From assembly GCA_016206155.1 (NCBI GenBank), contig JACQSC010000004.1:75699-139698 (forward strand): a stretch of DNA of 64,000 bases, written 5' to 3'. Below, piece after piece: positions 24,743-24,886 of the stretch. The position numbers were made by a program, and so were the translations under genes. The DNA is from Candidatus Uhrbacteria bacterium (lineage in GTDB: Bacteria; Patescibacteriota; Patescibacteriia; JACQRZ01). The notes below the pieces were generated by a model. That model ran no database searches. It saw nothing but the letters and a program-made list of their open reading frames with translations, and was not told where the DNA came from. Numbering within the stretch: position 1 is the stretch's first letter; each line of letters starts with the position of its first letter.

Positions 24743-24886
24743 AATCGTCAAAGAATTGTCATCCCGGCGAAGGCCGGGATCCAGTCTATAACTATGTTTT
24801 CTACTTATAAGGATTTATTTTTAGTCTGGATTCCCGCCTCCGCGGGAATGACAGCTTCGACGAAATGTGACAATTCTTTGACGATT
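24743..24886. repeat. composite palindromic element of the TGTCATCCCGGCG...CCGGGATCCAG family
   Basis: Outer inverted repeats AATCGTCAAAGAATTGTCA (24743-24761 and 24868-24886) enclose two inverted copies of a GC hairpin unit (24757-24784 and 24826-24853). Each unit has the form ATCCCGG-N-CCGGGAT or ATTCCC-N8-GGGAAT. Confidence 0.6.

Follow-up and report, generated by a model that had tools for sequence, protein, structure and literature searches.

A 219-bp mosaic inverted-repeat element, probably a mobile repeat of a small family, in Candidatus Uhrbacteria

The window analysed here is a 64-kb stretch of a contig of at least 288 kb from a metagenome-assembled genome (MAG) of Candidatus Uhrbacteria. 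Its host belongs to the Candidate Phyla Radiation (CPR; Patescibacteria), and a 298-amino-acid hypothetical open reading frame (ORF) within it is 100% identical to MBI4253036.1 (HY623_02535) from a Candidatus Uhrbacteria MAG. Between the start of this ORF and the 3' end of a tRNA-Val gene lies a 219-bp element of nested inverted repeats around two opposed hairpins, which is the subject of this report. Comparison with a second Uhrbacteria genome shows that the composite moved into different loci as a single unit once the two Uhrbacteria lineages had separated, and that its hairpin core also exists separately.

Architecture of the element

The window has exactly two occurrences of the 19-mer AATCGTCAAAGAATTGTCA, inverted with respect to each other (24743-24761 and 24868-24886), where 0.03 would be expected; the chance expectations for these repeats and the folding z-scores were computed against shuffled sequence. 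These arms lengthen to 24 nt at 96% identity (24738-24761 and 24868-24891), and a further pair of arms, 31 nt at 81% identity, lies outward of them (24696-24726 and 24894-24924), bringing the nested inverted repeats to a total of 229 bp (24696-24924). Alignment with the other copies described below sets the ends of the element proper at 24701-24919, a 219-bp unit that begins GGTTAAC and ends GTTAACC. It is bracketed by a perfect 6-bp direct repeat, CTTAAT, read from the sequence (Table 1), which is a candidate target-site duplication of this copy.

The first-pass annotation of this DNA had described a palindrome of about 145 bp with 19-bp inverted repeats outermost, enclosing two hairpin units in opposite orientation. 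The 19-bp repeat is indeed perfect and the two hairpins are of the types described, each being unique in the window with 0 expected (ATCCCGGCgaagGCCGGGAT, 24761-24780; ATTCCCGCctccGCGGGAAT, 24830-24849). The palindrome itself is real but forms only the middle of the larger element, whose true terminal repeats are the GGTTAAC... arms further out. The surroundings had also been read as a divergent promoter region; tRNA-Val and the 298-amino-acid ORF are, however, both on the minus strand, which makes the site a co-directional spacer, and the actual divergent region is that between tRNA-Val and the FemAB gene (25119-25248).

One oriented 27-nt unit, GTCATYCCSSCGRAGGSSGGRATCCAG, describes both hairpins, one on each strand, and the conserved GTCAT flank of each points outward from the core. 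The palindrome is asymmetric, in that a 14-nt segment, GCTTCGACGAAATG, is present on the right side only and appears as a gap when the halves are self-aligned. Folded as single-stranded DNA, 171 nt give -38.9 kcal/mol against -17.1 +/- 3.2 in shuffles (z = -6.9) and 241 nt give z = -7.9, a range that holds for the window copy and for the copy at locus L014 introduced below; RNA folds on either strand reach -70 to -71 kcal/mol (z = -7.4 and -8.4). The coding content of the element is limited to short ORFs in repeat-derived frames.

Table 1. Features of the element and the two genes beside it, in window coordinates
Feature	Position	Strand	Remark
298-amino-acid hypothetical ORF (MBI4253036.1, HY623_02535)	23765..24661	-	Start codon 39 nt from the element end
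Left CTTAAT direct repeat	24695..24700		Identical to 24920-24925; just outside the ends defined by L014/L011 similarity
Left terminal inverted repeat GGTTAACTGCGCAATAAAACCTGTGC	24701..24726		Pairs with 24894-24919; homologous termini in L014 and L011
Left subterminal inverted repeat CCTAAAATCGTCAAAGAATTGTCA	24738..24761		Includes the perfect 19-mer, which is also in L011, L014 and L013
102-nt core TTGTCAT...ATGACAGCTT, both hairpins and spacer	24755..24856		With unrelated flanks in L055 (93%); within L014 and L011 (88-90%)
Hairpin unit 1 TGTCAT-CCCGGC-GAAG-GCCGGG-ATCCAG	24757..24784	+	SRM/NTS type; exact SRM pattern match
AT-rich central spacer between the hairpins	24785..24825		Partly conserved in four copies; aligns to the Rfam WsnRNA46 loop region
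Hairpin unit 2 TGTCAT-TCCCGC-GGAG-GCGGGA-ATCCAG	24826..24853	-	Exact dRS3 consensus ATTCCC-N8-GGGAAT; NTS with 2 mismatches
Asymmetric 14-nt segment GCTTCGACGAAATG	24854..24867		Right side only
Right subterminal inverted repeat TGACAATTCTTTGACGATTTCAGG	24868..24891		24-nt arm pair; contains the 19-mer
Right terminal inverted repeat ...CACAGTTAACC	24894..24919		31-nt arm pair
Right CTTAAT direct repeat	24920..24925		Read from sequence
tRNA-Val(tac)	25042..25118	-	3' end 122 nt from the element

Copies at other loci

A scan for exact matches to the 19-mer, covering one genome per species for 185,579 species, returned eight loci, three of which are in CPR genomes and have hairpins beside the match. 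Two of the three, L011 and L014, are in the Uhrbacteria MAG JACQWH01 (GCA_016209345.1); they are homologous to the window element over its whole length, stand at other loci and are 83-88% identical to it. The L014 copy (6000-6218, GGTTAGC...GTTAACC) has the same length as the window copy, 219 bp, and the L011 copy carries an expanded hairpin. Two genomes between them carry the three full-length copies, which share the same internal junctions, occupy loci that are not orthologous and face either way with respect to the genes beside them; in each case the element ends 13-39 nt upstream of a start codon. The copies are 83-93% identical to one another, whereas the orthologous genes beside the L014 copy have only 67-74% nucleotide and 47-62% amino acid identity. 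The TTCCCGC-type and TCCCGGC-type hairpins keep the same side assignment in every copy and the 14-nt segment is retained in every full-length copy, and from this shared asymmetry and the fixed sides of the hairpins it follows that all copies descend from one oriented ancestor.

In the third CPR match, L013 from a Roizmanbacteria MAG, a different hairpin, GTCATTCTGAGC..., adjoins this arm at the same TTGTCA/T junction, at the end of the contig. MAG contigs L011 and L013 and the Logan contigs L001, L005 and L006 all terminate inside the element, as is expected of a repeat. Independent Logan contigs from three samples confirm both junctions of the element with unique flanks.

An exhaustive HMMER search with the open frame that runs through the element yielded 31 proteins, nearly all of them hairpin-array translations with the motifs VIPAKAGIQ or WIPASAGMT. 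The closest, MBI4600137.1 (HY732_04450), is from JACQWH01 (contig JACQWH010000066, locus L055, 3001-3252) and was deposited as "hypothetical protein"; it is a translation of the repeat core. L055 has a core-only copy at 3071-3172, 102 nt in length and 93% identical to window 24755-24856, with the arms missing. Since the core is found apart from the inverted-repeat shell, the 219-bp element is a mosaic, a hairpin-doublet core inside a shell. The L055 core is flanked by units of another palindromic family, which is also present in the window. Units of this second family (GAAAATGGTGTCAGGAATAGTTT... and its complement) were noted at L055 3040-3070 and 3173-3240, and at least five copies are in the window (1982-2035, 8066-8116, 9709-9795, 32631-32730 and 56445-56502).

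An nhmmer profile of the three full-length copies detected no further copy in the window or the examined loci. A scan of JGI metagenomes with the degenerate arm AAAYCGYCAAAGMATTGTCAY gave 16 loci, all coding (IAKELS-type) or unrelated. By blastn, the 229-bp stretch 24696-24924 had no match among plasmids and, among phages, only a 35-nt hairpin match in a Microcystis phage. Scans of viral contigs returned one coding chance match for the arm and none for the degenerate outer terminal repeat, and a protein search with concatenated element translations found nothing at E <= 0.01.

Empty sites in related genomes

L014 4096-7980 is syntenic with window 486-3845. In L014 the element lies between a UPF0102/YraN gene, whose start codon is 13 nt away, and a 146-amino-acid membrane ORF, whose stop codon is 1 nt away, whereas the window orthologues of these genes lack the element and overlap by 4 nt (ATGA, 2414-2417). 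Insertion in the L014 lineage is a far likelier explanation than a deletion that happened to restore such an overlap. For the site in the window, the Logan contig L052 has a homologue of the 298-amino-acid ORF (71% identity), and there the tRNA-Val 3' end is 12-21 nt from the start codon, a gap that measures 380 nt in the window. L031, a contig from the same study as L052, retains the FemAB/tRNA-Val arrangement. FemAB homologues gave no second anchor for the window site among the contigs examined, the 75%-identical ones being on contigs that end inside tRNA-Val (L031 and L053) and the more distant ones being non-syntenic. Both comparable sites are empty in a relative, and both copies are therefore insertion-polymorphic. 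The L011 copy has one flank only.

These homologues at non-orthologous loci, the two empty sites and the 6-bp direct repeat support the suggestion of the first-pass annotation that the palindrome resembles a miniature inverted-repeat transposable element (MITE) and is mobilisable. It had proposed target-site duplications and additional full-length copies as checks: CTTAAT, a candidate duplication, flanks the window copy but no such repeat is present at L014, and two full-length copies are in JACQWH01 but no second copy or other armed unit is in the 64-kb window.

The hairpins and the dRS3/NTS/SRM family

The two hairpins share one plan, consisting of GTCAT, a stem of 7-8 bp, a GNAG loop (here GRAG), the returning stem and ATCCAG. 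Each is a semi-palindrome with a conserved 5' flank, having a perfect 8-bp stem, a 4-nt loop and an orienting 5' TGTCAT. Between the stems of units 1 and 2 there are two differences, each a compensated change of a base pair (C-G to T-A, and G-C to C-G), so each local hairpin is perfect even though the halves of the element cross-pair at only 79%. This suggests that the hairpins are maintained as separate intrastrand stems, which would fit recognition of single-stranded DNA hairpins by a protein such as an Ssn-family nuclease.

The dRS3 consensus has been extended to an oriented 28-nt sequence, NTS (CGTCATTCCCGCGMAVGCGGGAATCYRG), and to a degenerate Ssn-related motif, SRM (PMC11893778). The same paper describes the single-domain GIY-YIG nuclease SsnA, which limits transformation and binds and cuts NTS as single-stranded DNA only; its authors liken NTS-ssnA-NTS to insertion sequences and REP/BIME systems, and name Wolbachia among the SRM-rich genera (PMC11893778). 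An SRM is there defined by the pattern HGTCWYN(0-2)YYVSBRHN(0-5)WNVSBRGN(0-2)RNCYNB or by the NTS consensus with at most one mismatch (PMC11893778). Unit 1 (24757-24784, plus strand) matches this pattern exactly, with 0.19 matches expected per window, whereas unit 2 fails it at one loop position and, with 2 mismatches to NTS, is only a near-member. Unit 2 is an exact match to the dRS3 consensus, ATTCCC-N8-GGGAAT, and unit 1 is the ATCCCGG variant. The inverted pair flanks a spacer of 41-49 nt much as inverted copies of the 20-bp repeat enclose 50-150 bp in NIMEs, a likeness of architecture only, the spacer not being Neisseria RS sequence. Judged by their sequence, the hairpins that the first-pass annotation named "family-1" are units of the dRS3/NTS/SRM type already described (PMC11893778) and not a private family.

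SRM units are not numerous in the sequence examined: only two are in the 64-kb window, both within the element, and none is found elsewhere in the 16 kb of JACQWH01 examined, apart from its element copies. Ssn proteins are single-domain GIY-YIG proteins (cd10448) whose genes usually have SRMs on either side. A search of all reading frames of the window and of the Uhrbacteria loci gave no GIY-YIG signature, nor did Pfam scans of 30 ORFs. Inverted NTS doublets with spacers of 20-50 nt are frequent in viral-contig data. On one metagenomic contig from IMG/VR (L042), a small GIY-YIG ORF (...YVYMLASKRNGTLYLGVTSDLLNRVHAHREG...) at about 1416 (plus strand) lies about 3 kb from an inverted NTS doublet at 4533-4615, which is consistent with the published Ssn-SRM association.

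A related hairpin unit, GTCATCCCGGCG...GGGGGATCCAG, is in frame within the polA ORF (54616-57465, minus strand) at 54802-54852, where it encodes WIPRQSRASWPPAGMT. By comparison with the Taq, Bst and Klenow polymerases the insert adds 15 residues (...NWIPRQSRASWPPAGMT...) to a surface loop just before the QVHDEL motif. It had been suggested to be a fragment of the family of which the composite is the intact form. It is a single long-loop unit resembling the expanded hairpin of the L011 copy, and as it has neither arm nor spacer it is a member of the hairpin family and not demonstrably part of the composite.

Interpretation and alternatives

We put at about 0.7 the probability that the 219-bp element is a non-autonomous mobile repeat, mosaic in structure and belonging to a small family in Candidatus Uhrbacteria, similar to MITEs, NIMEs and REPINs. 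The family is small and new, but elements of its kind are already known. Like MITEs, the element is short, non-coding and bounded by inverted repeats, and it occurs at multiple loci with presence/absence polymorphism (three copies and two empty sites). Several observations weigh against this reading. The known copies amount to three at full length and one of the core alone, with no second copy in the window and none in the JGI metagenome scan, plasmids, phages or viral contigs. Breakpoints at the empty sites cannot be fixed to the nucleotide, since the genomes compared are only 47-75% identical in protein, and the 380-nt gap in the window also contains about 100 nt of other hairpins. The flanking 6-bp repeat is present in only one of the two copies with both flanks, those of L014 being GCTATA and GTTAAC. 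Genes for a transposase, Ssn/GIY-YIG, RAYT or integrase were not found in the 64-kb window or the examined loci.

In a classical MITE route, an enzyme encoded elsewhere would act in trans on the outer terminal inverted repeats and mobilise the composite, and staggered cleavage of the target by a transposase would give the CTTAAT duplication at the window copy. We favour this route, at a little under even odds, because of the long terminal repeats, the constant length and the 6-bp duplication in one copy. Possible, though rather doubtful, is a single-strand route directed by the hairpins, as in REP/RAYT or as proposed for NTS/Ssn; the identity of the core as SRM, the compensatory stems, the core-only copy and the lack of a duplication at L014 keep it open. 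Once inserted, the element would place a hairpin of great stability between two adjacent genes, in their transcript or template, and a predicted consequence of insertion is that expression of the neighbours is probably uncoupled or attenuated.

The nearest alternative is that the element moves as a REPIN does, with an Ssn-family GIY-YIG enzyme or a RAYT/IS200-IS605 Y1 enzyme nicking single-stranded DNA by the GTCAT flanks of the inverted SRM hairpins, without target duplication, and with the outer arms as a passenger or a former target palindrome. SsnA cuts single-stranded DNA beside NTS, and the likening of NTS-ssnA-NTS to insertion sequences and REP/BIME systems points the same way, although SsnA-driven transposition has never been shown (PMC11893778). 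The fit of unit 1 to the SRM pattern, and of unit 2 to NTS with 2 mismatches, speaks for this explanation, as do the compensatory changes preserving each local hairpin, the 102-nt core standing alone with other flanks and no duplication, the L014 copy without a flanking direct repeat, and the Roizmanbacteria arm with its different hairpin, which suggests exchange of modules at the TTGTCA/T junction. A cut close to the hairpins does not, however, explain identical outer ends in three copies at 55-60 nt past the hairpins, nor the perfect 6-bp repeat flanking the window copy; SRM-type hairpins have not expanded, the sole two in 64 kb lying in the element, and neither the window nor the examined loci yielded a GIY-YIG or Y1 gene. 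We consider this explanation unlikely.

Other readings were rejected on the points counted against each. The element might be a structured small RNA (sRNA) gene or a cis-regulatory RNA akin to Wolbachia WsnRNA-46, transcribed from a single strand and working as RNA, for example to terminate or process transcripts between tRNA-Val and the ORF. Its position between two co-directional genes, its strong RNA folds and a full-length match to Rfam RF02625 (E = 9e-9) speak for this, but the match scores 45.6 bits on the plus strand and 40.5 bits on the minus strand, below the RF02625 gathering score of 65.3, and near-equal scores on both strands are what a DNA palindrome gives. A promoter and terminator scan did no better than chance, the copies are at unrelated loci in either orientation to their neighbours, the site is empty in relatives, and WsnRNA-46 is itself among the most multi-copy of annotated sRNAs (PMC9029176), which suggests that it is a repeat element too. 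An RNA gene or RNA regulator is thus very improbable.

Still less credible is a vertically inherited host palindrome (an operator, a terminator or an attC-like site) that was lost in some lineages. The core sites of integron attC are RYYYAAC and GTTRRRY, and the element's ends, GGTTAAC and GTTAACC, are each one base off; it is also always intergenic and near a gene start. The attC core consensus is nevertheless unmet on either side, the window has no integrase and no cassette array, the three loci are non-orthologous, precise loss restoring a 4-nt gene overlap is implausible, and the element is better conserved than its neighbouring genes. A chance palindrome or an assembly artefact such as a chimeric fold-back can be set aside almost entirely: no Logan contig spans the centre (24785-24861), but expectation in shuffles is zero, the complete architecture is seen twice in an independent MAG assembly, and both junctions with unique flanks are supported by Logan contigs from three samples.

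A bolder version of the mobile-repeat reading, which we offer tentatively and think rather unlikely, is that hairpin doublets of the dRS3/NTS type are themselves mobile modules in Patescibacteria. The 102-nt core would insert site-specifically beside a TTGTCA motif where other palindromes have their apex, and the composites so formed would then spread within and between Uhrbacteria lineages; the copies have 83-93% identity, the proteins of the genomes that carry them about 50-60%. If true, this would be the first filled-site/empty-site evidence that SRMs transpose and are not merely nuclease targets, and small genomes with few copies would be a tractable system for finding the enzyme.

Relation to known repeat systems

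The units are nearly those of the Neisseria dRS3/NTS/SRM family, with unit 2 reading TGTCATTCCCGCGGAGGCGGGAATCCAG where NTS has CGTCATTCCCGCGMAVGCGGGAATCYRG, and they have the same oriented GTCAT 5' flank, short GC stem and 4-nt loop. Neisseria genomes, however, have hundreds of units each, against two in 64 kb here, and the units described here form part of a larger element bounded by terminal inverted repeats. The host also differs, CPR being absent from the text of the paper on SRM (PMC11893778), and no ssn gene was found in the window or examined loci. The dRS3/NTS/SRM hairpin family is hereby extended to a reduced CPR genome.

With NIMEs (RS segments between inverted dRS3), the BIMEs of E. 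coli and the REPINs of Pseudomonas (REP doublets), the element shares two inverted hairpins around a short spacer, an intergenic, non-coding nature and a modular build, with the core having other neighbours in L055 and the arm another hairpin in L013. Unlike these, the doublet is enclosed by an extra 55-60 nt of inverted repeat per side, and the composite spreads as a fixed 219-bp unit. Neither a RAYT gene (window and examined loci) nor a GTAG motif was found, and the spacer is unrelated to Neisseria RS.

Among bacterial MITEs are the Correia elements of Neisseria, the RPEs of Rickettsia, which insert in frame in genes, and the QMITEs of Coxiella. All are matched here by a length within 100-250 bp, terminal inverted repeats, lack of coding capacity, insertion polymorphism and, in one copy, a flanking direct repeat, and the in-frame hairpin within polA recalls the RPEs. 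The differences are that the termini lack sequence similarity to those of these MITEs, that there is no known parent insertion sequence and that the interior is a dRS3/NTS-type doublet.

The whole 151-position model of Rfam RF02625 (WsnRNA46) is matched, in the order outer stem, GTCAT hairpin half, ATCCAG, AT-rich centre, CTGGAT, hairpin half, ATGAC and outer stem. With 45.6 bits (E = 9e-9), less than the gathering score, and with both strands matching, the element is not a member of that family; the Rfam "sRNA" shares the layout of the same kind of DNA repeat. What is gained here is that such hairpins are shown within a discrete element whose ends are defined and for which there are two empty-site comparisons and a candidate target duplication; this bears on how such repeats spread. 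The main value lies in the filled-site/empty-site evidence that SRM-containing elements spread, together with the caveats for annotation. The practical consequence is modest, this being a small new family of a familiar class.

Annotation of the surrounding region

The window ORFs called over the element (24630-24791, 24794-25024 and 24805-25011) carry the repeat-derived motifs VIPAKAGIQ, WIPASAGMT and LDSRLRGND, and the ORFs at 24630-25024 are probably spurious. These ORFs and the deposited MBI4600137.1 can be explained as annotation artefacts, namely translations of the repeat. The promoter and terminator scan of the element found nothing above chance. An outward promoter from the arm was considered and rejected: TTGACG is present but is not followed at 16-18 nt by an acceptable -10 hexamer, and the result was no better than in shuffles.

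The tRNA-Val(tac) gene is flanked by complementary segments of 12-14 nt, cccgcccacctttg and caaaggtgggcggg (25030-25043 and 25125-25138), and a different, again complementary, pair surrounds tRNA-Val in a 71-75% relative (L031 1-60, L052 1-45); such a pair may form a stem for processing of the precursor. A third hairpin type, CCTGCCT gcggt AGGCAGG with tandem CCTGCCTGCG, is found near tRNA genes at 24981-25021 and 34409-34440, the latter copy being joined to a half SRM, CACGGGAATGACA. The FemAB and Mur ligase genes have between them a 33-nt inverted repeat (85%) with arms 114 nt apart (26267-26299 and 26414-26446), which may be another inserted palindrome, because the two genes overlap in the 75% relative L031.

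Elsewhere in the window, the 23S rRNA gene (36116-44175 region, minus strand) is split by at least 3 group I introns (Rfam matches at 36614-36819, 40272-40514 and 41548-41798) and has several LAGLIDADG endonuclease ORFs within it, e.g. 37031-37489, 37784-38401 and 38614-39339; a 5S rRNA is at 36116-36223. ARAGORN called a tRNA-Ile with the anticodon TAT at 4404-4479 (minus strand). A reverse transcriptase ORF (RVT_1, 51967-53034, minus strand) adjoins a bAvd-like ORF (52984-53349, plus strand), and the pair looks like a diversity-generating retroelement.

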